Positions 50,573 through 64,000 are shown, numbered from the stretch's first letter. The stretch is DNA of 64,000 nt from Phycisphaera sp. (GCA_016125285.1 WGMA01000016.1:1-64000); one strand, 5' to 3'. Notes: generated by a model not told the origin, from the letters alone. Numbers and translations: made by a program.

Positions 50573-50874
50573 GGCGGAATTCAATGCCGCGAGAACGCGA
50601 AAGTGAAGCGCCGGCAGAATTTTGTAGAGCGATTGAGACAAATGCGTGTGCCCGTGGAGGTTCGTGTCGAGCGACGCGGCGCGTCGCTCTATCGATCTAT
50701 TGGCCCGAACGCGCGGATTGTTACGCGCCTGGCGGCGGTCGGGGACTGATTGATTCGTGCAGTGCTTTGATTCGATCGGAGCTTGGTTCGGCGAGGTTCT
50801 TGCCCCTACAATGCGGCCACGATCGCTCACGTGGGCACGTGGGTGGGCACACATACACGTCCAATTCAGATGGG

Positions 50875-53787
50875 ATGGGCTTCATGGTACGGAACGTTAC
50901 AGTTGCTCTGTTGACGGTCCTGCTGGCGGTCGCCGCGCCGATGTACGCGGCGGCGCCGGTGCAGGAGATTTCCAAGTCGATCGACGCCGAGGCGGGGCTG
51001 GTGGTGGTGATCGGCGGCGGCGCCGACACCGCGGACATCGCCGCGGGCCTGGGCAACGGCGACCGGCTCGTGCACGTGATCGCCTCGGACTACGCCGAGC
51101 TCAAGCGTGTCAACGACGCGGTCGCCAAGGCGAACCTCAAGGGCTGCGTCACCGTCGAGGTGCTGGGCCTGGCGACGCTGCCGTACCGCGATCACCTGGT
51201 CAACGCGATGGTGATCACCGACGCGGACAAGGCGGCGAAGGCCGGGCTGAAGATGGAAGAGGCCACGCGGAGCGTCATCCCCGAGGGCGTGATCGTGCAG
51301 TGCCGCGGCGGCAAGGTTCAGGTCACGCGGACGCCGGTGCGTAACGACATGGACGTGTGGACCCACCGCTACCACGCGGCGGACGGCGTGCCGGTGTCCA
51401 ACGACAAGGTGTTCGCGATGCCGATCGGCTTCAAGTGGAACGCCGACCTGCCGATGAACTTCGACAACCCCGAGCGGGCGGCCAACCGCTACTCGTCCAC
51501 GCGGGCGCTGATCGTCGACGACGGCCGCATCTTCACGTTCAGCGAGTGTGTCGTGGAGAACCTCGGCGAGGGCGTCAGCTCGAAGTTCGGCACGGATCAG
51601 TACCTCACGTGCCGCGACGCGTTCAACGGCCGGCTGCTGTGGCGCAAGAACGTCGGCGACACCTACTACGGCGGGCTGTACATCGAGAACACCGCGCCGC
51701 TGATCAGCACGGGGCGTCGGCTCTACACGGCCGGGGCGAACGGCAAGATGGAGGTGCTCGATACGCGCAGCGGCGAGACCGTGCGTGAGCTGCCCACGAA
51801 GTTCATCCCCGGCGTGATCGCCGCGTCGCAGGGCGTGGTGGTGACCACGACGTGGTCCGGCGGCAAGCAGATGGGCTCGGTCAAGCATTACGACCGCCGG
51901 CGCATGGACTGGGAGATCAGCGCGGGCACGGTGGAGGCCTACGACGACGCGACGGGCAAGCTGCTGTGGAAGAACGACACGCTGGGCACGTCGCTGCTGA
52001 TCGCCGACGGAACGGTGTTCATCGTCAACCGCAACGAGCGGGACGCGCTGGAGGCCGAGCACAACAAGCGTCGCGAGGGCGTCGACCTCAAGCACCCGCC
52101 GCAGAAGGTCATCGCGTACGACCTGAAGACCGGCAAGCAGGTCTGGTCGGTAGACGACACGAGCTTCAATGTCAGTGACCAGCCGCTGAGCCTGGAGTCG
52201 GCGGGTCGCGGCGCGGTGGCGGTGGGGCTGGACGGTCGGTCGAAGGTCGCGATCCTCGCGGCCGACAGCGGCAAGCTGCTCGAGGCCGACGCGCTGAAGG
52301 AGGCGAACGACTACTTCTTCCGCTTCCGCAACCACATCTGCACGCCGGTGCTGCGTGTGGGCGACGTGGTGTTCAACAACCGCGGCGGCAACATCAAGGA
52401 CGGCAAGTCGAACACAAACTTCGGCGGCGCCCGCGCCGCGTGTCTGACCGGCACCGTGCCCGCCTACGGCGCCGGGTACATCGCGCAGAATTGGTGCCGC
52501 TGCTCGCCGGGCCAGATCCCCGGCCTGCTCGGCGTGGCGCCGATCGGCAAGGTCCCCACGCCCGAGGAGATGGAGGTCCCCACGCAGCCGATCAAGCTCG
52601 GCGACTACAGCGAGGGCGAGGACGGCGTGGCGCACCCGTCGAACTGGACGTCGTTCCGCGGCAACGCCGAGCGTAGCAGCAGCGTCGCGATGGACGTGCC
52701 CGACGACGTGAAGGAGAGCTGGTCGGTCAAGCTCGCCGGCGACGAGCTGGCCGGCACGATCCAGCGTGACTGGCAGTCGTACCTCAACAGCCGCCTGACC
52801 GCGCCGGTGCTCGCGGACAACCTCGCGATCGTCGGCGATATCGATCACAACGAGATCATCGCGTTCGACACCGCCAAGGGCGCCGTCAAGTGGCGGCACA
52901 TGCTCAGCGGCCGCGTCGACACGCCGCCGACCGTCTACAAGGGCATCGTGCTCATCGGCGATCACACCGGCTACGTCACGGCGCTGAAGGTGAAGAACGG
53001 TCAGCCGATCTACAAGCTGCGGATCGCGCCCGACGAGAAGCGGATGATGTCGTACGGCAAGGTCGAGTCGGTCTGGCCGGTGATCGGCGGCGTGCTGGTC
53101 GCCGAGGGCAAGGCGTTCGCCTCGGCGGGGCGCACGCAGGGCTCCGACGGCGGCCTGGTCGTCCGCGCCTTCGAGCCGGAGACCGGCAACCCGATCTGGG
53201 CGCAGGCCATCCCGCAGTCCAGCCCCGAGCTGACCGAGAAGAAGCCCAAGCGCAACGACGCGCTGGCGCGGCACGGCGAGTTCGTCACCGTCATGGGCCA
53301 CTGGCTCCGCCTCGACAACGGCGCGTTCGCACCGAAGCCCGAAGGCGACACGCTCGACATCGGGCTCGAAGGCCTCTACAGCTGGAACTGGACACGCCTG
53401 GGCGACCGCAAGTTCATGGCGATCGGCTACGGCTCGATCAAGGGCGACACCATCGCGTGGAACGACAGCTACGCCGTGACCACCCGTCACGACAGCAGCG
53501 GCCTGATCGCCTCGCGCGTCGACCCGAAGAAGGTCCGCGGCTTCCCCGGCCTGCCCAACATCTATCAGCCCACGTGCATGGTCGTGTGCAACAACGCCCT
53601 GATCCAGGGCGGCGCCATCCTCGACCAGCCCGCTGACAAGGGCTTCATCCGGGCCGTCAGCCTCACCGACGGCAAGGTCCTGTGGGAAAAGAAGTACACC
53701 AAGAAGCTCGCGTTCAACGGCCTGGCGGTCGATAACGGCGGGATCCTCGCCAGCTTCGACGACGGGTCGGTCGTCTGCCTCAAGTAA
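50875..53787 (+). CDS. Secreted methyltransferase-like fold plus PQQ-like beta-propeller protein (paralogue of 26896-30954)
   Basis: ORF trimmed to ATG 50875 (ATG 50884 is an alternative), with signal peptide LLTVLLAVAAPMYAAAP. The motif I position is degenerate (LVVVIGGGADTADIAAGL). Many propeller blades follow. The C-terminus ..DDGSVVCLK resembles ..VDGSITCLDAK of the paralogue. Confidence 0.75.
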   Translation: MGFMVRNVTVALLTVLLAVAAPMYAAAPVQEISKSIDAEAGLVVVIGGGADTADIAAGLGNGDRLVHVIASDYAELKRVNDAVAKANLKGCVTVEVLGLATLPYRDHLVNAMVITDADKAAKAGLKMEEATRSVIPEGVIVQCRGGKVQVTRTPVRNDMDVWTHRYHAADGVPVSNDKVFAMPIGFKWNADLPMNFDNPERAANRYSSTRALIVDDGRIFTFSECVVENLGEGVSSKFGTDQYLTCRDAFNGRLLWRKNVGDTYYGGLYIENTAPLISTGRRLYTAGANGKMEVLDTRSGETVRELPTKFIPGVIAASQGVVVTTTWSGGKQMGSVKHYDRRRMDWEISAGTVEAYDDATGKLLWKNDTLGTSLLIADGTVFIVNRNERDALEAEHNKRREGVDLKHPPQKVIAYDLKTGKQVWSVDDTSFNVSDQPLSLESAGRGAVAVGLDGRSKVAILAADSGKLLEADALKEANDYFFRFRNHICTPVLRVGDVVFNNRGGNIKDGKSNTNFGGARAACLTGTVPAYGAGYIAQNWCRCSPGQIPGLLGVAPIGKVPTPEEMEVPTQPIKLGDYSEGEDGVAHPSNWTSFRGNAERSSSVAMDVPDDVKESWSVKLAGDELAGTIQRDWQSYLNSRLTAPVLADNLAIVGDIDHNEIIAFDTAKGAVKWRHMLSGRVDTPPTVYKGIVLIGDHTGYVTALKVKNGQPIYKLRIAPDEKRMMSYGKVESVWPVIGGVLVAEGKAFASAGRTQGSDGGLVVRAFEPETGNPIWAQAIPQSSPELTEKKPKRNDALARHGEFVTVMGHWLRLDNGAFAPKPEGDTLDIGLEGLYSWNWTRLGDRKFMAIGYGSIKGDTIAWNDSYAVTTRHDSSGLIASRVDPKKVRGFPGLPNIYQPTCMVVCNNALIQGGAILDQPADKGFIRAVSLTDGKVLWEKKYTKKLAFNGLAVDNGGILASFDDGSVVCLK

Positions 53788-53820
53788 GGCCGACACGCGA
53801 CAGCACGACACGCATCGACC

Positions 53821-53847
53821 AACGCCCCGTGCCCCGCGCGGGGCGTT
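53821..53847 (+). terminator. Candidate terminator stem-loop
   Basis: AACGCCCCG-(9 nt)-CGGGGCGTT, followed by gtcttg. The U-tract is weak. Confidence 0.5.
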
Positions 53848-54066
53848 GTCTTGCGCCGCGGCGATCCGCCAGTGTGGGCCGGTTGGCGCGGTTCGAGCCA
53901 AAATGCCACGCCGGCGCGGACCGCGCGGCGGTGGTCGGGATACAATGCCCCCGCACCGGGACCGGGCGACGGCCCACCCCGCTGACCGTCCGACGGCGTT
54001 GTCGGGCGGGAGGTCACACGCGTGACCTCGACTACTCAATCGCGATGGGCACGCGAAAGGATCGAT

Positions 54067-55119
54067 ATGCGTTCTTATCTGGCAGCGGCCATGGTTCTGG
54101 CGTTCGTGCTCCCATCGGTTTTGCGGGCGGAGGCCGGCGTGACTTACGAAGGCGACAGCGGCCCCGGCAAGGGCAAGCACATCGTGTTCATCGCCTCGGA
54201 CCACGAGTACCGCGGCGAAGAAACCTGCCCCGCGATCGCACGCATCCTCGCCAAGCGCTACGGGTTCAAGTGCACCGTGCTGTTCGGGCTCGACGGCGAG
54301 GGCAACGTCAAGGCCGGCTCGTCGAACATCCCCGGCATGGAGGCGCTCGACGACGCGGACATGCTGTTCCTGTTCATCCGCTTCCTGGCGCCCGACGACG
54401 AGTCGATGAAGCACTTCGTGGCGTACCTCGAGCGCGGCGGTCCGGTCCTCGGGCTGCGGACGTCGACCCACGGGTTCAACGGCCTGAAGGGCGACTACGC
54501 GAAGTACAACTACAACAACGGGGACCCCAACTTCGAGGGCGGCTTCGGCCGTCAGGTCCTCGGCGAGACGTGGAACCCCAAGAAGGGCGCCGGTCACTAC
54601 GGCAGCAACCACAAGTACAGCACGCGCCTGCACACCGTGCCGGAGCAGGCGAGCCACCCGGTGATGACCGGCTGCAAGGACATGCACGTCATGGCGGGCG
54701 CCTACTCGGCCGTGCCCCAGCCCAACTCCGTCATCCTCGCGACCAATCAGGTGCTGGATAGCATGTCGCCCGACGCCAAGCCGCTCGAAGGCAAGACGCC
54801 TCAGCCGGCCGTGTGGGTGCGGACGTACCAGCTGCCGGGCGGCAAGGAGGGCCGGGCGTTCTGCTCCACGCAGGGCGCGTCGCAGGACATCCTCAGCGAC
54901 GACTTCCGCCGCTGCATCATCAACGGCGTGTTCTGGTGCATGGGGATGGAGGACGCGATCAAGGCGGACATGGACGTGTCGTTTGTCGGGCCGTACAACC
55001 CCGCAACGTTCGCGTTCGGCGGCGAGCGCAAGGGCGTGAAGCCGGCCGACATCGCGGGCTGGGACACGCCGATCTGGAACCCGGACGCACCGACCGACGC
55101 CCCGAAGAAAAAGAAGTGA
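54067..55119 (+). CDS. ThuA-like (class I glutamine-amidotransferase-fold) secreted protein
   Basis: ORF trimmed to ATG 54067, with a signal peptide. KHIVFIASDHEYRGEE, DMLFLFIRF and RRCIINGVFWCMG fit the ThuA-domain pattern as I recall it. Confidence 0.6.
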   Translation: MRSYLAAAMVLAFVLPSVLRAEAGVTYEGDSGPGKGKHIVFIASDHEYRGEETCPAIARILAKRYGFKCTVLFGLDGEGNVKAGSSNIPGMEALDDADMLFLFIRFLAPDDESMKHFVAYLERGGPVLGLRTSTHGFNGLKGDYAKYNYNNGDPNFEGGFGRQVLGETWNPKKGAGHYGSNHKYSTRLHTVPEQASHPVMTGCKDMHVMAGAYSAVPQPNSVILATNQVLDSMSPDAKPLEGKTPQPAVWVRTYQLPGGKEGRAFCSTQGASQDILSDDFRRCIINGVFWCMGMEDAIKADMDVSFVGPYNPATFAFGGERKGVKPADIAGWDTPIWNPDAPTDAPKKKK

Positions 55120-55129
55120 GACGCCATCC

Positions 55130-56794
55130 ATGATGACGATTCGACAATCCGCGTTCTGCGCCGGAGTGATGTTCGTTGCGATGCTGGCGCTGTTCGTCGC
55201 CGTTTGCCATCCCCAACCGGCGCACGCGGCGGCGGCGGCGCCCGGCAAGCGCCCGAACGTCGTGTTCATCCTCGCCGATGACATGGGCTACTCGGACCTG
55301 GGCTGCTACGGCGGCGAGATCGAGACGCCGAACCTCGACGCGCTGGCGGCGGACGGGCTGCGCTTCACGCAGTTCTACAACACCGCACGCTGCTGGCCTT
55401 CGCGTGCGGCGCTGATGACCGGGTATTACGCGCAGCAGGTGCACCGCGACGGGCTGCCGGGCTTGGGCGGCGGCGGTGGGGGCAGGCGTCAGGAGTGGGC
55501 GCGGCTGCTGCCGGACTTCCTTGCGCCGCTCGGCTACCGCAGCTATCACAGCGGCAAGTGGCACATCGACGGCAAGGTGCTCGACGCGGGGTTCGACCAC
55601 TCGCTCGACGTGCGCAATCACGGCGACAACTTCACGTGCAAGGGCAACCTGGTCGACGACAAGCCCGTCACGCCGCCGGCCGACGAGTCGGGCTATTACT
55701 CGACGACGGCGATCGTCCAGCACGCGATCGACTGCCTGAAGGATCACGCCGCGCACTACGCCGGCCGGCCGTTCTTCAGCTACGTCGCGTTCGTCGCGCC
55801 GCACTTCCCGCTGCAGGCCCCGCAGGACGACATCGCCCGCTACGCCGGCAAGTACGACGCGGGCTGGGACGTGATGCGCGAGCGGCGTTTCGCGCGGCAG
55901 AAGGAGCTCGGCGTCGTCAACACCACGCTGTCGAAGCTCGAGCCGGACGTCGGCCCGCCGTACTACTTCGCCGACGCGTTCGAGAAGCTCGGCCCCGGCG
56001 AGGTCCGGTACCCGGTGCCTTGGGACCAGCTGACCGACGAGCAGAAGAAGTTCCAGTCGACGAAGATGTCGATCCACGCGGCGATGGTGTACCGCATCGA
56101 TCAGGAGGTCGGGCGGCTCGTCGCGCAGCTCAAGGCGATGGGGCAGTTCGACAACACGCTGATCTTCTTCGCGTCGGACAACGGCGCCAGCGCGGAGATC
56201 ATGGTGCGGGCGGGCGGCCACGATCCAAGCGCCCCGCCGGGCAGCGCCAAGACGTTCCTGTGCCTGGGGCCGGGCTTTTCGAGCGCGTGCAACACGCCGC
56301 ACCGGCGGCACAAGACCTGGGTGCACGAAGGCGGGATCAGCACGCCGCTGATCGTGCACTGGCCGGCGGGCATCAAGGCGCACGGCGAGCTGCGGCACAC
56401 GCCGGGCCACTTCGTCGACATCATGCCGACCGTGCTCGAGGTCGCCGGCGGTGAGAAGCCGAAGCGGTGGAAGGGCGAGGCGCTGCCGCCGGCGCCCGGT
56501 CACAGCCTGGTCGCGGCGTTCGCCGATGACGTGACGATCGCGCGCGACCACCTGTGGTGGCTGCACGAGGGCAACCGCGCGATCCGCGTGGGTGACTGGA
56601 AGCTCGTGGCGGCGAAGGGCGATCCGTGGGAGCTGTACGACATGACGTGCGATCGCGCCGAGTCACACAACCTCGCGGCCCAGAAGCCCGAACTCGTCGA
56701 GCGGCTCGCAGCCGAGTGGGACGCGCAGACCAAACAGATCAGCGAGTTGGCGAAGCAGACCGCGGACCTCGGCGGCAGGGCGAAAAAGAAATAA
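55130..56794 (+). CDS. Cys-type arylsulfatase
   Basis: A signal peptide is followed by RPNVVFILADDMGYSDLGCYG and the active site CWPSRAALMTG. SDNGAS is also present. Confidence 0.9.
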   Translation: MMTIRQSAFCAGVMFVAMLALFVAVCHPQPAHAAAAAPGKRPNVVFILADDMGYSDLGCYGGEIETPNLDALAADGLRFTQFYNTARCWPSRAALMTGYYAQQVHRDGLPGLGGGGGGRRQEWARLLPDFLAPLGYRSYHSGKWHIDGKVLDAGFDHSLDVRNHGDNFTCKGNLVDDKPVTPPADESGYYSTTAIVQHAIDCLKDHAAHYAGRPFFSYVAFVAPHFPLQAPQDDIARYAGKYDAGWDVMRERRFARQKELGVVNTTLSKLEPDVGPPYYFADAFEKLGPGEVRYPVPWDQLTDEQKKFQSTKMSIHAAMVYRIDQEVGRLVAQLKAMGQFDNTLIFFASDNGASAEIMVRAGGHDPSAPPGSAKTFLCLGPGFSSACNTPHRRHKTWVHEGGISTPLIVHWPAGIKAHGELRHTPGHFVDIMPTVLEVAGGEKPKRWKGEALPPAPGHSLVAAFADDVTIARDHLWWLHEGNRAIRVGDWKLVAAKGDPWELYDMTCDRAESHNLAAQKPELVERLAAEWDAQTKQISELAKQTADLGGRAKKK

Positions 56795-57617: not shown

Positions 57618-57621
57618 AATG

Positions 57622-57694
57622 TGGGCAAGGGCGGACTTGAACCGCCGACACCGGCATTTTCAGTGCCGTGCTCTACCAGCTGAGCTACTTGCCC
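57622..57694 (-). tRNA. tRNA-Phe (anticodon GAA)
   Basis: The 73-nt cloverleaf was folded by hand: acceptor GGGCAAG/CTTGCCC, D arm GCTC-AGCTGGTA-GAGC, anticodon arm CGGCA-CTGAAAA-TGCCG, variable loop GTGTC, T arm GGCGG-TTCAAGT-CCGCC and discriminator A. CCA is not encoded. Confidence 0.95.
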
Positions 57695-58366: not shown

Positions 58367-58411
58367 ACACAAAACCCGACGCCGGCACACGCGAGATGCG
58401 CCGGCGTCGGG
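58367..58411 (-). terminator. Rho-independent terminator of the 58439-59302 gene
   Basis: On the minus strand: CCCGACGCCGGC-(13 nt)-GCCGGCGTCGGG, a perfect 12-bp stem, followed by TTTTGTGT. Confidence 0.75.
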
Positions 58412-58438
58412 TGGAACGTTGTGGGGCGGGCGAGCGGT

Positions 58439-59302
58439 TTACGGCTGCGGCCAGGCGAGGCGGACGGTGAAGCCGGACGGCAGCTGCTCGTCGGGGTTGT
58501 CGATGGTGAACACGCAGCGGAAGGTCTGGCTGGCGGGCTCGATCTGGGGCTCGACGCTCTTGAGCTTGCCGATGACGGTCTTGCGTGTGCGGTTGACGGG
58601 CGGGCCGGCGTAGAAGGTGTACTCCTTGCCGATCTGCAGCTCGCCGTAGAGCTGCACGGGCAGGAACATCTGCGCCTCGAGCGGGTTGAGCGCGATCATG
58701 TAGATGATCACGTCGTCGCTGCGGTTGTTGGAGACGGTGGCGCCCTCTTCGACGCCGAGCTGGAGGATGCGTCCGTCGAACGGCGCCTTGATCTTGTAGC
58801 GATCGAGTCGGAGCTGCTCGAGGTCGAGCGACGACTTGGCGCGGTCGAGGTCGATCTGGGCTCCGGTCTGCTGGAGCTCGCGCTGCCGGAGCTCGAAGTC
58901 ACCGATCGCCTTCTTCTCGAGCAGCCGCTTGGCCTGGTCCACCTGCAGCTTGGCCTCCTCGAGCAGGGCGGCGCGGCGGTCGACCTCGAGCCGGGCGGCC
59001 TCGACCTGCACGATCTGCAGCTCGTCGTCCATCACCGCCAGCACGTCGCCTTCCTTGACCGAGTCGTCCTCATCGACGTTGATCTTCTTGATCAGGCCTT
59101 CGAGCGGCGCCATGAGCGACACCTTCTTCGACGGCTTGACGAGTCCGGTAAGTCTTTCGTCGTCGGGGGTGATCGGCTTGAGCTGCAGGGGCTGCTCGAT
59201 GTCGCCCGCCGCGGCGCCCTGACTCTGGCCGGTCGAAACCGACGCGACGGCCAGCGCGGCGAGCACGGCGGTGAAGCAGAATAACCTTGACAAAGTTTTC
59301 AT
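58439..59302 (-). CDS. Periplasmic membrane-fusion protein (HlyD / RND-adaptor family)
   Basis: ORF trimmed to ATG 59302 (ATG 59305 is an alternative), following AGGAGG. It has a signal peptide. The biotinyl-lipoyl-like hairpin includes GLIKKINVDEDDSVKEGDVLAVMDD and IKAPFDGRIL. A coiled coil and a beta-barrel follow. Confidence 0.8.
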   Translation of the reverse strand: MKTLSRLFCFTAVLAALAVASVSTGQSQGAAAGDIEQPLQLKPITPDDERLTGLVKPSKKVSLMAPLEGLIKKINVDEDDSVKEGDVLAVMDDELQIVQVEAARLEVDRRAALLEEAKLQVDQAKRLLEKKAIGDFELRQRELQQTGAQIDLDRAKSSLDLEQLRLDRYKIKAPFDGRILQLGVEEGATVSNNRSDDVIIYMIALNPLEAQMFLPVQLYGELQIGKEYTFYAGPPVNRTRKTVIGKLKSVEPQIEPASQTFRCVFTIDNPDEQLPSGFTVRLAWPQP

Positions 59303-59406
59303 CATTCCTCCTAATGCCTCATCTTGCGCTTGGATTCGGCGTTCGTCGCCAACTATTGTATCCAAGTCGCCGGTGGAGTCAGGGTAGCCAGAGAGATGAG
59401 TTTCGC

Positions 59407-61335
59407 ATGAGTCAGACGGCCGATCAAGTTCAGCGGCTCGTTCAGCAGGCGTTGGGCGAGTTCGAGCAGCAGATGTCCAGCGACGAGAAGCCCTCGTCGG
59501 TGCTGACCAAGATGATGGAAACGCTGCTGCGCACGACGCAGGGCGTGGGCGCCGTGGCGTGGATGTTCAAGGACCCCGAGCACCCGGAGTTCACGTCGGT
59601 GGCGCAGGTGGGCCCGGCGTCGCCGCTGGTGTTCGACCCCGAGGGCCGCATCCAGACGCCCGTGCGTGAGGTGCTCCAGCAGAGCGCGTCGCAGGGCAAG
59701 CCGATCATCGTCGCGCCCGATCAGCCGGACTTCCAGAAGACGGACCTGCACAACACGTGTCAGTTCATCGTGCCGATCGACGCGATGGGCCGCACGCTGG
59801 GCGTGGTGCAGCTGATCCACACCAAGGACCTGGACCCGAAGGTCTACCGCCAGTTCGTGATGTTCACGCAGCAGGCGTCGCGTGCGGCGGGGCTGTACCT
59901 GGCGCGGCGTCAGAGCAACGTGCTCCGCGAAGACCTCGACGCGGCGACGCGCATGCTCAAGATGTCGCACCAGCTGGTCAAGGTCTCCACGCCCGAGGAC
60001 CTGATCCACGAGCTGGCGAACCTGGCGCGCAACGCGCTGAAGGCGCAGCGCATGTCGGCGGTGGGGTACTGGCGGAACAAGACGGAGGTCGCGTTCAGCG
60101 ACACGATCGAGGTCAACCGCAAGGCGGTGGTCGTGCGGACCGTCGAGCTGCTCGCCGAGGTCGTGCGCGACCGGCGCGTGCCGATGGTGTTCCTCCGCGA
60201 CCAGGAGCTCGAGCCGGAGGAGCAGTCGCTGCTGCCGCTGCTGGAGGATCTGTACAGCCACGGCGCGGCCGAGGCGATCGTGCTCACGCCGCTGATGGTC
60301 GACAAGAAGGTCGTCGGCGTGCTGATCGGCGAGTACGACGACGCGGAAGAGGCGTCGGCGCGATCGGCGACGCAGAGCGAGGTCGCCGGTCAGGCGGCGC
60401 CGCTGCTGAACCAGGTCGTCGAGTGGCGCTACCGCCCGCTGCGTCGCACGAGCGACCTGCTGGCGTCGATCCGCCGCAGGCCGATGTCGTCGATGGGCAA
60501 GGTGGCGGTGGCGGTCGCGATCGTCTGGTTCGTGATCCACGTGCTGTTCTTCGTGCCGATGCCGGTGTCGGTGTTCGGCGAGGCGCGTCTGGAGCCGGCC
60601 AAGCTGGCGCTGATCACGGCGCCCGAGGCCGGGCGGATCAGCGACGTGAAGATCGTCAACGGTGAGGCGGTGGAGCGCGGCCAGGTGCTGGCGACGATGG
60701 ACGACATCGACCTGAAGCTGGAGCTGGCGGAGATCGTGCAGAAGATCAGCGGCGAGCGGGTGGAGCTGGAGGCGTCGCGTCGCGAGGGCGACCGGCCGAA
60801 GCTTCAGGCCTCCCAGCTCCGCATCGAGCAGTATCAGCTGCAGAAGCAGTCGCTGGAGCGCAAGATCGAACGCGCGCAGGTGCGCACGCCGATCGGCGGC
60901 GTGGTGCTCGACGACCGCCCGCAGCGGCTGATCGACCGCACCGTCGCGCAGGGCGACGAGCTGATGAGCGTGGCGGACCTCACGGAGTTCGAGCTGGTGA
61001 TCGACCTGCACGAGGAAGACCTCGCGGCGGTGGAGGAGGCGATCCGCGACGGCAAGGAGGTCGAGGTGTCGTTCCTCAGCCGCCCCTGGCCGGACCTCGT
61101 CCAGCACGCGAAGGTCACGAACATCGAGCAGCTGTCGCCGACGAGCCGCCCCGACGAATACCAGAAGCAGCACGTGTTCCGCATCATCGTGCCGATCGAG
61201 CTGGAGGGCCTGAGCCCGCAGCTGGTGCTGGCGAACCCGACCGGCCGCGCCAAGCTGATCACGCCGCCGCGCAGCATCGCGTACGGCGTGTTCGGCGGCG
61301 TGTGGCGATTCCTGAAGATGACCCTGTTCTTCTAA
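59407..61335 (+). CDS. Tandem GAF domains, one TM and a HlyD-type membrane-fusion domain in one protein
   Basis: ORF trimmed to ATG 59407. Two GAF-like regions are present (..QFIVPIDAMGRTLGVVQLIH and ..LTPLMVDKKVVGVLIGEY). The TM is VAVAVAIVWFVIHVLFFV. The HlyD hairpin includes ITAPEAGRISDVKIVNGEAVERGQVLATMDD and VRTPIGGVVL. Confidence 0.8.
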   Translation: MSQTADQVQRLVQQALGEFEQQMSSDEKPSSVLTKMMETLLRTTQGVGAVAWMFKDPEHPEFTSVAQVGPASPLVFDPEGRIQTPVREVLQQSASQGKPIIVAPDQPDFQKTDLHNTCQFIVPIDAMGRTLGVVQLIHTKDLDPKVYRQFVMFTQQASRAAGLYLARRQSNVLREDLDAATRMLKMSHQLVKVSTPEDLIHELANLARNALKAQRMSAVGYWRNKTEVAFSDTIEVNRKAVVVRTVELLAEVVRDRRVPMVFLRDQELEPEEQSLLPLLEDLYSHGAAEAIVLTPLMVDKKVVGVLIGEYDDAEEASARSATQSEVAGQAAPLLNQVVEWRYRPLRRTSDLLASIRRRPMSSMGKVAVAVAIVWFVIHVLFFVPMPVSVFGEARLEPAKLALITAPEAGRISDVKIVNGEAVERGQVLATMDDIDLKLELAEIVQKISGERVELEASRREGDRPKLQASQLRIEQYQLQKQSLERKIERAQVRTPIGGVVLDDRPQRLIDRTVAQGDELMSVADLTEFELVIDLHEEDLAAVEEAIRDGKEVEVSFLSRPWPDLVQHAKVTNIEQLSPTSRPDEYQKQHVFRIIVPIELEGLSPQLVLANPTGRAKLITPPRSIAYGVFGGVWRFLKMTLFF

Positions 61336-61370
61336 GCGTCGGTTGATCGACACGCGGACCCGCACACCCC

Positions 61371-63620
61371 ATGGCGCACCTCCCGTTCCAACCCGAACCG
61401 CCTCAGCCGCCGCAGCACGGCGTGGACGACGAGCCGTTCCAGCGCGACAACTCCGGCCAGGCCGAGCAGGCGATGTCCGAGCCGCTGCCGGCGGTGCGCA
61501 AGGACCTGGAGATCAGCCCGCAGCTGTACCTCGGCAAGATCGTGTACGTCGTGAAGGACCCGGTGAGCCTGACGTATTTCCGCCTCAAGCCCGCCGAGCA
61601 CTTCGTGCTCAAGAACCTCGACGGCCAGGCCAGCGCCAACGACATGGCGCGGAAGCTGGCGCGTCACTTCCCCGAGCAGCCCGCCGACGCCGAGCAGGTG
61701 ATGGTCTTCATCCGCATGCTGCAGGGCTCGGGCCTGCTGCTGGGCCGCGGCGAGTCGCACGGCGAGTGGATCCGCGAGAACCGCGACGAGCGCCGCCGCA
61801 AGAACGTCATGGCGCAGTGGTTCAACTTCCTGTTCATCAAGATCCCCATCATGGACCCGGACCACCTGCTCGACGACATCTACAGCTTCGTGCGGTTCTT
61901 CATGAACCGAAAGACGATGTGGCTGGCGGCGATCTTCCTGGTCTCGTCGCTCGTGGCCATCGGGCTCCACCTCGACCGCGTCGGCGCGCTGAAGTTCCCC
62001 GTGCTCGGGTGGATCAACGCCCTGATGCTCACCGGCACGTTCCTCACGGTGAAGGTCATCCACGAGTTCGGGCACGGCCTGGCCGCCAAACACCGCGGCC
62101 TCGAAGTGCACGAGATCGGCGTGATGATGATGGTGTTCTTCCCTGTGTTCTACGTCGACGTGTCCGACGCGTGGATGGTCACGCGGCGATCCGACCGCCT
62201 GTGGATCAACGCCGGCGGCGTGTACATCGAGTGCCTCTTCGCCTCCATCGCCGCGTGGGTGTTCCTCAGCACCGACCCCGGCGTCGTCAACCAGATCGCG
62301 TTCAACACGATGCTCGCCGCGTCGGTCACCACCGTGCTGTTCAACGCCAACCCGCTGCTGCGGTACGACGGCTACTACTTCCTGATGGACTGGCTGGAGA
62401 TCCCCAACCTCCGCTCCAAGGCCGGCAACTACTGCGGCTACCTCGCCAAGCGCTACCTGCTGGGCATGGACGAGGAGGTCCCGCCGCACGAGGCGTCGAC
62501 CCACCCGATCTTCATGCCGCTGTACTCCGCGGCCGCGGGCGTCTACCGCTGGGTCGTGGTCTTCGGCATCATCGCCGTCGTCTGGCACCTGCTCGATCCG
62601 TACGGCCTCGAGGTGATCAGCGCCATCATGGGCATCGTCGCCGTCGTCACCATGCTGCTGCTGCCGCTCGGACAGATGCTCTCGTTCGTCTGGTCGCAGC
62701 AGAAGGCGCGCACCGGCAGGCAGGTCGCGATCAGCGTGCTCGGCGTCGTGGCGCTGTTCGGCGTCGCCGCCGGCATCCTCGCCATCCCCACCGATCAGAC
62801 CGTCAAGCACCCCGTCGTCGTCCTCGCCGTCGAGCGCCAGCCCGTGTTCGCCTTCGTGCCCGGACGCGTCGACGAGGTCCACGTCGACGACGGCCAGTAC
62901 GTCCACAAGGGCGACCCGCTGCTGACCCTCCGCAACCCGCCGCTCGTCGATCGCCTCGACCAGCTCGGCGTGTCGCTGCGGCTGACCCAGCTCCAGCTCG
63001 AATCCTCACGCATCGACGGCCGCATCGACGTCGTCGCGTCGCTCACCACGCAGATCAAGCACATCCGCGAGCAGATCGACGTGACCAACGAGAAGATCGC
63101 CGAGCTGGTCGTCCGCGCCCCGATCGACGGACGCATCCAGACCTACCGCCGCCTGCAGACCCTGCTGGGCATGATGGTCGACCGCGGCGACGAGATCGCC
63201 CTGGTCGTCGGCGACCAGCAACGCGAGGTCGACATGGTCCTGCCCGAGACCGACGCCTCGCTCGTCGAGGTCGACGACCGGGTCAACGTCCGCCTCTGGG
63301 GCTCGGCCGAGTTGGCCCGGGTCGGCCACGTCGAGCGGGTCGGATCGCAGATTCTCAAGTCCCTGCCCCACGAGGCCCTGTCCTCGCGGTTCAAGGGCGA
63401 AGTGGACACTGTGCCCACCAGTCAGTACAATTCCGCCCCCAGCACGCCGTCCGTGATCGCCACGATCACCATGGACCCGGGACAGGCGCCGCTGCCGCTC
63501 GACGGCAGCACCGGACGCGGCTCGATCATCGTGGAGGAGAAAGTGACCCTCGCCGCCCAGCTGTGGCGCAGGATCCGCCAGGTGATCAGTCCCGACTATC
63601 GCCTGTGGATGATGAAATAA
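61371..63620 (+). CDS. PqqD-like N-terminal domain, M50 (site-2 protease family) membrane metalloprotease and a HlyD-type membrane-fusion domain in one protein
   Basis: HEFGH lies at 62061-62075 and the second M50 motif NPLLRYDG at 62349-62372. The N-terminus reads YVVKDPVSLTYFRLKPAEHFVLKNLDGQASANDMARKL. The C-terminal hairpin includes GRVDEVHVDDGQYVHKGDPLLTL and VRAPIDGRIQ. Confidence 0.8.
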   Translation: MAHLPFQPEPPQPPQHGVDDEPFQRDNSGQAEQAMSEPLPAVRKDLEISPQLYLGKIVYVVKDPVSLTYFRLKPAEHFVLKNLDGQASANDMARKLARHFPEQPADAEQVMVFIRMLQGSGLLLGRGESHGEWIRENRDERRRKNVMAQWFNFLFIKIPIMDPDHLLDDIYSFVRFFMNRKTMWLAAIFLVSSLVAIGLHLDRVGALKFPVLGWINALMLTGTFLTVKVIHEFGHGLAAKHRGLEVHEIGVMMMVFFPVFYVDVSDAWMVTRRSDRLWINAGGVYIECLFASIAAWVFLSTDPGVVNQIAFNTMLAASVTTVLFNANPLLRYDGYYFLMDWLEIPNLRSKAGNYCGYLAKRYLLGMDEEVPPHEASTHPIFMPLYSAAAGVYRWVVVFGIIAVVWHLLDPYGLEVISAIMGIVAVVTMLLLPLGQMLSFVWSQQKARTGRQVAISVLGVVALFGVAAGILAIPTDQTVKHPVVVLAVERQPVFAFVPGRVDEVHVDDGQYVHKGDPLLTLRNPPLVDRLDQLGVSLRLTQLQLESSRIDGRIDVVASLTTQIKHIREQIDVTNEKIAELVVRAPIDGRIQTYRRLQTLLGMMVDRGDEIALVVGDQQREVDMVLPETDASLVEVDDRVNVRLWGSAELARVGHVERVGSQILKSLPHEALSSRFKGEVDTVPTSQYNSAPSTPSVIATITMDPGQAPLPLDGSTGRGSIIVEEKVTLAAQLWRRIRQVISPDYRLWMMK

Positions 63621-63685
63621 ACTACCCCCGGGGCACGTCGCCACGGGATTCAGTGAGATCGAGAAAGAAGAAGGAAGGTTTAGCA

Positions 63686-64000
63686 ATGGCTAAGGACAAG
63701 AACGACGACAAGACCACCCCGGAATCCGCCGAGCACGCCACCGCCGGTGCGGGCGACACCGTCAGCGCCCCCGCTGAGCAGACTCCCCCGCGCGGCGCCC
63801 AGCTCCGCCTCGACGAGTCCAACGTGCAGTGCTTCTACTCCTCGACGACCCGTCTCTCCGGTTCCGCCGAAGAGATCACCATCGACTTCGCCCAGGGCAT
63901 CCGCCCCGTCGGCCCCAACGCCGCCGTCCTGAAGATCGACGCCCGCGTCGTCATGTCCCCCTGGGGAGCCAAGCGCCTCGTCCAGGCCCTCGAGCAGACC
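63686..64000 (+). CDS. DUF3467 family protein (5' part; continues past the window end)
   Basis: This ORF is absent from the ORF track because there is no stop before the window edge. I translated it by hand from ATG 63686, which follows GAAGAAGGAAGG: MAKDKNDDKTTPES...LRLDESNVQCFYSSTTRLSGSAEEITIDFAQGIRPVGPNAAVLKIDARVVMSPWGAKRLVQALEQT. This fits my recollection of the DUF3467 pattern. Confidence 0.65.
   Translation, partial: MAKDKNDDKTTPESAEHATAGAGDTVSAPAEQTPPRGAQLRLDESNVQCFYSSTTRLSGSAEEITIDFAQGIRPVGPNAAVLKIDARVVMSPWGAKRLVQALEQT

Follow-up and report, generated by a model that had tools for sequence, protein, structure and literature searches.

Membrane-fusion proteins (MFPs) are textbook accessories of pumps, and TriABC, which is a two-adaptor system, provides a precedent for more than one adaptor paralog. 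Colicin V (CvaAB-TolC) and the NHLP bacteriocin systems are examples of peptidase-containing type I secretion, and one subunit of the NHLP systems has a sensor domain that binds nucleotides. The enzyme that removes the leader peptide of the daptides carries a recognition element (RRE) for RiPPs, peptides that are made on ribosomes and modified after translation, at the N-terminus of an intramembrane site-2 protease (bioRxiv 10.1101/2023.03.08.531785). Here, we analysed a 64,000-nt stretch of DNA from Phycisphaera sp. (GCA_016125285.1, WGMA01000016.1:1-64000; hereafter the window), at the end of which a short MFP gene is divergent from genes for a GAF-GAF-MFP fusion (GAF-MFP), a fusion of an RRE, an M50 site-2 protease and an MFP (M50-MFP), and a DUF3467 protein. 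From the comparison of related loci, we judge it an even bet that such loci encode a protease that recognises leader peptides and is joined to a duct of MFPs and TolC, with a protease and not a pump at its core, probably regulated by the GAF domains and distributed across the Planctomycetes-Verrucomicrobia-Chlamydiae (PVC) group. The features of the locus, including the transmembrane (TM) segments, are as follows:

58374..58412, minus strand: intrinsic terminator of the short MFP gene, a 17-bp stem with 12 G-C pairs and then TTTGTGT, 27 nt past the stop codon
58439..59302, minus strand: short MFP, 287 aa (Pfam, TIGR01730)
59303..59406, no strand: divergent spacer of 104 nt with an inverted repeat, a sigma-70-like site and the ribosome-binding region of the short MFP gene
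59407..61335, plus strand: GAF-GAF-TM-MFP fusion, 642 aa (Pfam, hhalign, TM scan)
59497-59886, plus strand: GAF-A, residues 31-160, 33.1 bits against a cutoff of 22.4
about 59992-60381, plus strand: GAF-B, divergent, 17.1 bits, E=0.008, sub-threshold
60502-60558, plus strand: TM segment of GAF-MFP, residues 366-384, one strong segment (TM scan)
60565-61332, plus strand: MFP module of GAF-MFP, HlyD domains, residues 387-581
61371..63620, plus strand: RRE/site-2 protease (M50)/MFP fusion, 749 aa (NCBIfam, Pfam, alignment, AlphaFold)
61509-61727, plus strand: RRE (PqqD-like), Pfam PqqD 21.6 bits, just below the cutoff of 23.4, and model fold
61908-62702, plus strand: membrane core of the protease, HExxH at residues 231-235 and NxNPLLRYDG at 325-334
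62715-62780, plus strand: TM7, AlphaFold helix 449-470
62787-63617, plus strand: MFP with alpha-hairpin, HlyD domains, residues 492-663
63686..64000, plus strand: DUF3467 gene, cut by the window end, PF11950 43.2 bits

The four genes had been proposed in a first-pass annotation made from the sequence, and their coordinates, their spacing (35 nt from GAF-MFP to M50-MFP and 65 nt from M50-MFP to DUF3467) and their domains were all confirmed using open reading frame (ORF) calls and the Pfam and NCBIfam models. In M50-MFP, Peptidase_M50 was matched with 29.6 bits against a Pfam cutoff of 27.2, and PF05402 is recorded for many of its homologs. The best NCBIfam match of residues 66-430 was the daptide_HExxH model NF041824 (E=1e-49, covering positions 25-368 of the 379 in the model), and the next best, with 45.9 bits, was the YydH/LiaK epipeptide protease (NF058609). 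The match to NF041824 reached 169.7 bits, which is under the family cutoff of 300 and places the protein outside the equivalog, and no daptide context (aminotransferase, methyltransferase, decarboxylase or precursor genes) was found near M50-MFP in the annotated neighbourhoods and the clustered loci; M50-MFP is thus a relative of the daptide protease and not a member of its family. Judged by these matches, its protease module belongs to the group of RiPP-type RRE/site-2 proteases.

An alignment of 88 sequences showed that H231, E232, H235 and the NxNPLLRYDG motif (325-334) are invariant. The RRE ranked with the best-conserved segments of M50-MFP, as R43, D45, Q51, G55, K62, D63, P64, Y69, R71 and G85 are invariant too, and the MFP part had no invariant column. 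Such conservation of the RRE suggests a single conserved ligand. The AlphaFold model of M50-MFP (pLDDT 88.6, pTM 0.70) has seven TM helices; the catalytic motifs sit in helices 214-241 and 305-326, and a beta-hairpin of the site-2-protease type lies at 248-263. The modelled RRE has a β3-α3 fold with strands within 47-72, helices within 74-119 and pLDDT above 85. The modelled MFP is complete, with a hairpin of 26+26 residues (523-549/552-577), and its fold matched MacA, MexA, EmrA and AcrA at E~1e-13 in Foldseek. With seven helices, the RRE is placed in the cytoplasm and the MFP in the periplasm. Taken together, the predicted protein is a seven-TM site-2 metalloprotease with an intact active site, and leader binding by its RRE is putative.

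The connection to the outer membrane was found in the relatives of the locus, which are cited below by their L numbers. In two annotated Verrucomicrobiota contigs, a gene of the TolC family (OEP, PF02321) begins 4-5 nt past M50-MFP, and the copy in L088 scored 141.5 bits against a cutoff of 22. A metagenome scan that was seeded with Verrucomicrobiota sequences yielded two clades. In the Chthoniobacter-like clade (L090-L131), the operon consists of GAF-MFP, the short MFP, M50-MFP and OEP, with OEP present in 20 of the 24 loci that had enough downstream sequence. In the second clade (L133-L169), OEP was found in 0/23 loci and DUF3467 lies directly upstream in 12/14. The linkage to OEP and to DUF3467 was mutually exclusive between the clades (OEP 20/24 vs 0/23; DUF3467 0/16 vs 12/14). 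In Thalassoglobus neptunius (L075) and L072, too, OEP-like genes occur about 1 kb downstream of M50-MFP. The operonic OEP is the strongest evidence that the MFPs play their usual role, with the protease as the only inner-membrane partner, and gene order makes it very likely that the MFP modules bridge to an outer-membrane duct. The proposal of the first-pass annotation that an MFP scaffold forms part of an envelope-spanning assembly is independently supported by the position of OEP directly after M50-MFP in 20/24 Chthoniobacter-like loci.

More than 3,400 relatives of M50-MFP were present in the protein collection, all of them with unspecific labels, e.g. ‘HlyD family efflux transporter periplasmic adaptor’, ‘PqqD family peptide modification chaperone’ and ‘putative peptide zinc metalloprotease protein’. 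In a scan of one genome per species, relatives were found in at least 589 species genomes, and the best 80 of these were all Planctomycetota (Phycisphaerae, Planctomycetia, Isosphaeraceae, Pirellulales and Kuenenia) except for one metagenome-assembled genome (MAG) labelled Verrucomicrobiota. A protein search seeded from this MAG returned matches named Chthoniobacter and Chthoniobacteraceae. All of the ORFs of 84 loci that contain M50-MFP were then clustered without prior labels. Among the 62 loci with enough upstream sequence, GAF-MFP was present in 60 and the short MFP in 49; GAF-MFP was also present in 36/39 metagenome loci. The commonest order was GAF-MFP, short MFP and M50-MFP on one strand, and in the subclade of the window the short MFP is inverted and lies upstream. 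The genes are therefore kept together across three planctomycetal classes and into Verrucomicrobiota (60/62 and 49/62), which answers the question of co-conservation that the first-pass annotation had raised. On this comparative evidence, they are a real, widely conserved gene set of Planctomycetota and Verrucomicrobiota.

This set is not accompanied by a pump. In tblastn searches of the 64-kb window, neither an ABC ATPase nor an RND pump nor a TolC-family query found a match (MFS had no query of its own), which agrees with the earlier observation that no pump, ATPase or outer-membrane channel was visible there. No transporter family was found among the clustered ORFs of the 84 loci, and none was conserved in about 165 related loci; the Pfam-annotated neighbourhoods agree. 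The sequence beyond position 64000, where an efflux locus might have continued, was available from contig L001, which is identical in sequence and extends 283 nt beyond the window end. There, a terminator ends the operon and no pump follows, and in the closest relatives the next gene encodes an alpha/beta hydrolase or an S13 peptidase, by which a pump downstream of the window was ruled out. Some flanking genes are specific to single lineages. In the Mucisphaera-type loci, an S13 peptidase and a GNAT acetyltransferase directly follow DUF3467, and an RND pump with its own adaptor lies about 3 kb downstream on the opposite strand (L003 15505-20156, L170 15666-20341 and L171 15496-20159, all minus). 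In Planctomycetales bacterium ZRK34 (L002 15132-17232, plus), a gene for a B12-binding radical SAM protein is followed by a 108-aa ORF 3 kb downstream of the system; these could be a RiPP-like pair, and the other loci had no conserved copy.

The short MFP consists of a hydrophobic N-terminal segment (residues 4-22, a signal or anchor sequence), a lipoyl domain, an alpha-hairpin and a beta-barrel, and the Pfam domains HlyD_3, Biotin_lipoyl_2 and HlyD_D23 were matched. It falls in the ORF cluster of MFPs of about 320 aa. Its match to the RND_mfp model TIGR01730 (158.8 bits, cutoff 94.9) covers only model positions 13-243 of 322, and the membrane-proximal domain, which is the part of an adaptor that contacts RND pumps, is missing. 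The short MFP is a periplasmic subunit.

In GAF-MFP, the single TM helix connects two GAF domains on the cytoplasmic side to the MFP module. This module matched HlyD_3, HlyD_D23 and Biotin_lipoyl_2, as did the other two MFPs, and the protein also weakly matched the HlyD model of the NHLP bacteriocin systems. The tandem GAF arrangement that had been proposed stands at the level of the family, where GAF was the top Pfam match of the GAF-B segment in nine of ten orthologs (above the cutoff in two) and the GAF halves align in register in hhalign; in the window protein itself, GAF-B is sub-threshold. That the GAF domains gate the assembly is inferred from domain identity only.

DUF3467 reached 43.2 bits against the PF11950 cutoff of 25. 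Its complete gene is contained in L001 (7342-7749, 135 aa, ending at the window-equivalent position 64093), and the model consists of a disordered 41-aa tail and a β3-α core, for which no match in the PDB by sequence and no significant fold match was found. A literature search on DUF3467 returned one incidental paper only, and no solved structure of the family was found. The gene had been counted as part of the set, and it does adjoin the set here; across the relatives it is linked in some lineages only, occurring within 10 kb of the system in 13 of the 37 species loci with full flanks, in three arrangements. In the Isosphaeraceae-type loci, it follows an S8 peptidase gene on the same strand. 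In the system-linked DUF3467 proteins, the N-terminal tail is disordered and either acidic or rich in Gln; next comes a conserved short [LV]x[LV]D[ED][ST] strand, ahead of the β3-α core, which might be a docking motif (window 63686-63830, alignment).

Large non-orthologous proteins whose N-termini are of the LEPR-XLL type adjoin the system in at least five lineages. In five Phycisphaerae loci, these are genes for proteins of about 7,000 aa, which are divergent from GAF-MFP in the Mucisphaera-type L003, L170 and L171 and follow the short MFP in L007 and L008. In eight Isosphaeraceae-type loci (L086 12934-17151, minus; L021, L023, L025, L032, L039, L048 and L050), an S8 peptidase of about 1,400 aa (N-terminus e.g. 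RIEAVQALESRQLLAPVV) is convergent just downstream of M50-MFP. Eight Chthoniobacter-like loci have a glycine-rich FG-GAP protein of about 1,600 aa with the N-terminus ...IEALESRIAPA, encoded 146 nt upstream of GAF-MFP on the same strand (e.g. L098 229-5064 and L111 328-5142, both plus). These three groups are not the only such neighbours. The common N-terminal pattern is a basic stretch followed by LExLExRxL(L/A), as in LQLEALEPRVLLTT, IEALESRIAPA and QALESRQLLAP; one candidate leader peptide of the LEPR type is RLQLEALEPRVLLTTLFGG. No hydrophobic core of the Sec type was found in the N-termini of these large neighbours. The N-terminus of the giant protein of L003 reached the cutoff of NF012209 (‘LEPR-XLL domain-containing protein’), and the match to PF07595 (‘Planctomycete extracellular’) was weak.

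A scan for the motif returned 37 matches in 2.18 Mb compared to two in a reversed-sequence control, and about 26 of the 37 were clear. Of the clear cases, 24 fell in the 1.11 Mb that lie no more than 5 kb from the system and two in the 0.68 Mb beyond. The N-terminal signal was first noted in 2004 (Studholme et al., cited after PMC8567305) and is taken to direct export, without any assigned machinery; in Tuwongella immobilis, 52 genes are of the LEPR type, including those of eight of the ten longest proteins (PMC8567305). Our literature search likewise found no machinery that had been assigned to the LEPR-type signal. The most likely clients of the system are large surface proteins that are headed by the LEPR-XLL/‘Planctomycete extracellular’ signal (RRLxxExLExRxLLA).

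If the proposal of a leader-recognising protease at an MFP/TolC duct is right, the three MFP paralogs would co-assemble as one adaptor ring atop the protease and dock to a TolC-like channel, which in the Phycisphaera genome would be encoded elsewhere. In the cytoplasm, the RRE would capture the conserved N-terminal leader of a client, the protease would cleave it off at the membrane's inner face, and the processed client, or part of it, would move outward through the MFP/TolC duct. The GAF-GAF module may adjust the activity in response to a cytoplasmic ligand, and DUF3467 may be a small cytoplasmic accessory, e.g. an adaptor or a chaperone. A more specific version, in which the system is a dedicated processing and secretion machinery for the orphan LEPR-XLL/Planc_extracel signal and hence a new pathway without an ABC transporter, is possible but can be held only tentatively. 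If true, it would combine an RRE-guided site-2 protease acting as a signal peptidase with a three-paralog MFP ring, a TolC channel and control by a GAF sensor.

Several observations weigh against these proposals. The evidence for cleavage and export is wholly comparative. No ATPase or other energy-coupling component was linked to the system, and the energy source is the main weakness of the export reading; it is also unclear by what route, through the site-2 protease or next to it, a 7,000-aa protein would cross the inner membrane. In the window and in its nearest relatives (L004 and L006), neither an OEP gene nor a LEPR-type gene was found nearby. The linkage of DUF3467 is partial (13/37 species loci and 0/16 Chthoniobacter-like loci). 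Moreover, the approximately 3- to 7-fold local enrichment of the motif is only indicative, since related loci are non-independent, giant genes at locus ends are detected unevenly and the window, L004 and L006 lack a neighbour of this type. LEPR-type genes are common: by a rough estimate of the gene number, the 52 of T. immobilis are about 1% of its genes, and their background would be roughly one per 130 kb. Giant RTX proteins use classical ABC-driven type I secretion. The LEPR-XLL motif also heads an RTX protein of about 8,000 aa in Vibrio (Proteobacteria) and thus occurs outside the PVC group as well (PMC10868602). Limnohabitans is another case of a proteobacterium that bears LEPR-XLL.

Among the alternatives, the one that survives best is the maturation and export of small peptides of the RiPP or bacteriocin kind, with the precursors encoded elsewhere; the RRE would bind the leader, the M50 protease would remove it and the peptide would exit through MFP/TolC, much as in the peptidase-containing ABC exporters. 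We consider this unlikely. It is true that the named families nearest to the protease module are leader peptidases of RiPPs (daptide_HExxH with E=1e-49 and YydH/LiaK with 45.9 bits), but 169.7 bits is below the daptide cutoff of 300. The frequent NCBI name ‘PqqD family peptide modification chaperone’ and the weak match of GAF-MFP to the NHLP bacteriocin HlyD model point in the same direction, but neither a precursor-like ORF nor a modification enzyme was conserved near the system in the approximately 165 loci, ORFs of at least 30 aa included, and the operon of the window, with gaps of 35 and 65 nt, leaves no room for one. Conserved precursor peptides were also sought by clustering the ORFs of at least 30 aa in the Chthoniobacter-like loci, with none obtained. 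Finally, the occurrence in at least 589 species genomes is a lineage-wide, housekeeping behaviour, unlike that of a sporadic biosynthetic cluster.

Site-2 proteases are classically signalling enzymes that are regulated by accessory domains such as PDZ and CBS, as in the signalling by RseP and SpoIVFB. The system could accordingly be pictured as a switch for regulated intramembrane proteolysis or surface-protein release, in which MFP/TolC would position the protease at giant adhesins held in the outer-membrane channel and the GAF domains would relay a cytoplasmic nucleotide signal, with a logic like that by which LapD/LapG control the LapA adhesin or like that of RseP- or SpoIVFB-type signalling. 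The GAF-GAF module is tied to the protease via the paired MFP modules, giant adhesin-like genes adjoin the system and LEPR-XLL heads giant proteins of the RTX type in Vibrio, all of which would suit such a switch; nevertheless, we regard it as quite improbable. No gene for a sigma, anti-sigma or other transcription factor was conserved nearby in the 84 clustered loci, the RRE is cytoplasmic in the seven-TM model and there is no homology to LapD or LapG. Furthermore, in Verrucomicrobiota the genes for TolC and the protease share an operon, which fits a dedicated duct better than a mere co-location. That the locus belongs to an ordinary tripartite efflux system with its pump encoded elsewhere, the M50 and GAF fusions being incidental, is very unlikely. 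In its favour are the score of the short MFP on TIGR01730, which is above the cutoff of this RND adaptor model, the resemblance of the MFP folds to MacA, MexA, AcrA and EmrA, and the RND pump 3 kb away in the Mucisphaera-type loci. Against it, strict conservation extends over the fusions, the catalytic motifs and the RRE, which would be unexpected for incidental fusions, and the short MFP lacks the pump-contacting membrane-proximal domain (its match ends at model position 243 of 322). The Mucisphaera pump has its own adaptor, is on the other strand and occurs in one lineage only, and about 165 loci showed no pump that is conserved alongside the system.

Regarding transcription, the short MFP gene has its own terminator as had been proposed, a 17-bp hairpin with a T-tract at 58412-58374 on the minus strand. 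On the plus strand, a terminator-like hairpin lies about 95 nt beyond the DUF3467 stop codon (L001 7844-7873, window-equivalent ~64188-64217, outside the window), and thus the unit comprises GAF-MFP, M50-MFP and DUF3467 and then ends. In the divergent spacer, a promoter scan found a sigma-70-like site for the minus strand at 59382-59355. The 7-bp inverted repeat that had been noted there (CTTGGAT at 59329-59335 and ATCCAAG at 59360-59366) is present at these coordinates, but its significance did not hold up: a repeat of at least 7 bp arises in 14% of the shuffles of the same 104-nt spacer, and it was not found in the four relatives with the same divergent layout (L004, L006, L007 and L008). 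With chance level and no conservation, its role as an operator was ruled out. The element that is conserved in the spacer of the window (59303-59320) and of these four relatives, CCTAATG, reads on the opposite strand as the short MFP gene's ribosome-binding region and is no regulator site. 

In the surroundings of the locus, a tRNA-Phe (GAA) gene (57621-57694, minus) lies between it and the upstream genes, and a 554-aa ORF (55130-56794, plus) has a sulfatase active-site motif (ARCWPSRAALMTGYY), assigned by motif only; its homologs flank L053 and L075. A 174-aa ORF beyond the short MFP terminator was rejected as a part of the system, as it was conserved in no related locus. Very long antisense ORFs cover real genes at 50866-55284, 59353-61365 and 61332-62906 (all minus); these are ordinary artefacts of a G+C content of about 67%, and they cluster across loci because the sense genes are conserved.

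The findings have consequences beyond this locus. MFPs that serve an intramembrane protease throughout a phylum, and that in some lineages are joined to TolC, would widen the known roles of tripartite envelope machines, and RRE-guided site-2 proteases would be extended beyond natural-product clusters. The system may be the missing machinery for the orphan export signal on giant surface proteins, and the locus is a concrete, genetically testable candidate for the machinery of this signal in Planctomycetes and Verrucomicrobia, whose giant surface proteins are numerous. The uncharacterised DUF3467 family is additionally supplied with a genomic context.

With regard to the known systems, the daptide leader peptidase MpaP (NF041824) and YydH/LiaK (NF058609) are alike in having an N-terminal RRE fused to an M50 intramembrane metalloprotease. 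In contrast to MpaP, the protease of M50-MFP runs on into TM helix 7 and a complete MFP in the periplasm, two further MFPs accompany it, and there are no RiPP biosynthetic genes or precursors nearby. The C39-ABC exporters with their MFP and TolC also join a leader-specific protease to an MFP/TolC duct, and in relatives of the system TolC is operonic. An ABC transporter with an N-terminal C39 peptidase was not found, there being no ABC ATPase in the window and none conserved in the related loci. Unlike those exporters, the system described here has no ABC protein or ATPase, its protease is a site-2 metalloprotease and not a C39 cysteine protease, the protease is fused to an MFP and not to a pump, and there are three MFP paralogs. 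The adaptors of tripartite systems (MacA, AcrA/MexA, EmrA and HlyD) have the lipoyl, alpha-hairpin and beta-barrel fold in common with the MFPs of the locus, and EmrA and HlyD likewise have an N-terminal TM anchor; here, however, a cognate pump is missing, large cytoplasmic or membrane modules (GAF-GAF, and an RRE with M50) are attached to two of the three adaptors, and the short MFP is devoid of the membrane-proximal domain.

Two further comparisons concern the logic of the system. LapD, a GGDEF-EAL protein, and LapG, a periplasmic cysteine protease, control the giant adhesin LapA. As is proposed here, that system unites a cytoplasmic sensor of the nucleotide type, a protease whose target is the N-terminal portion of a giant surface protein, and a TolC-like channel, but there is no sequence relationship. 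Sorting signals are paired with enzymes in LPXTG/sortase, PEP-CTERM/exosortase and GlyGly-CTERM/rhombosortase. The genomic signature is alike, i.e., unrelated cargo proteins with one short terminal motif stand beside a conserved membrane protease system in several lineages; here, in contrast, the motif is N-terminal and non-hydrophobic, the enzyme family and the MFP/TolC partners differ, and the candidate link comes from the neighbourhoods of the loci. Full-text literature searches found no description of an M50/HlyD/PqqD fusion or of GAF-MFP, and none of a characterised system of this composition, in agreement with what the first-pass annotation had stated. Every part of the system comes from a known family and the combination fits no characterised system: we read it as a tripartite MFP/TolC machine with a protease in the place of the pump.

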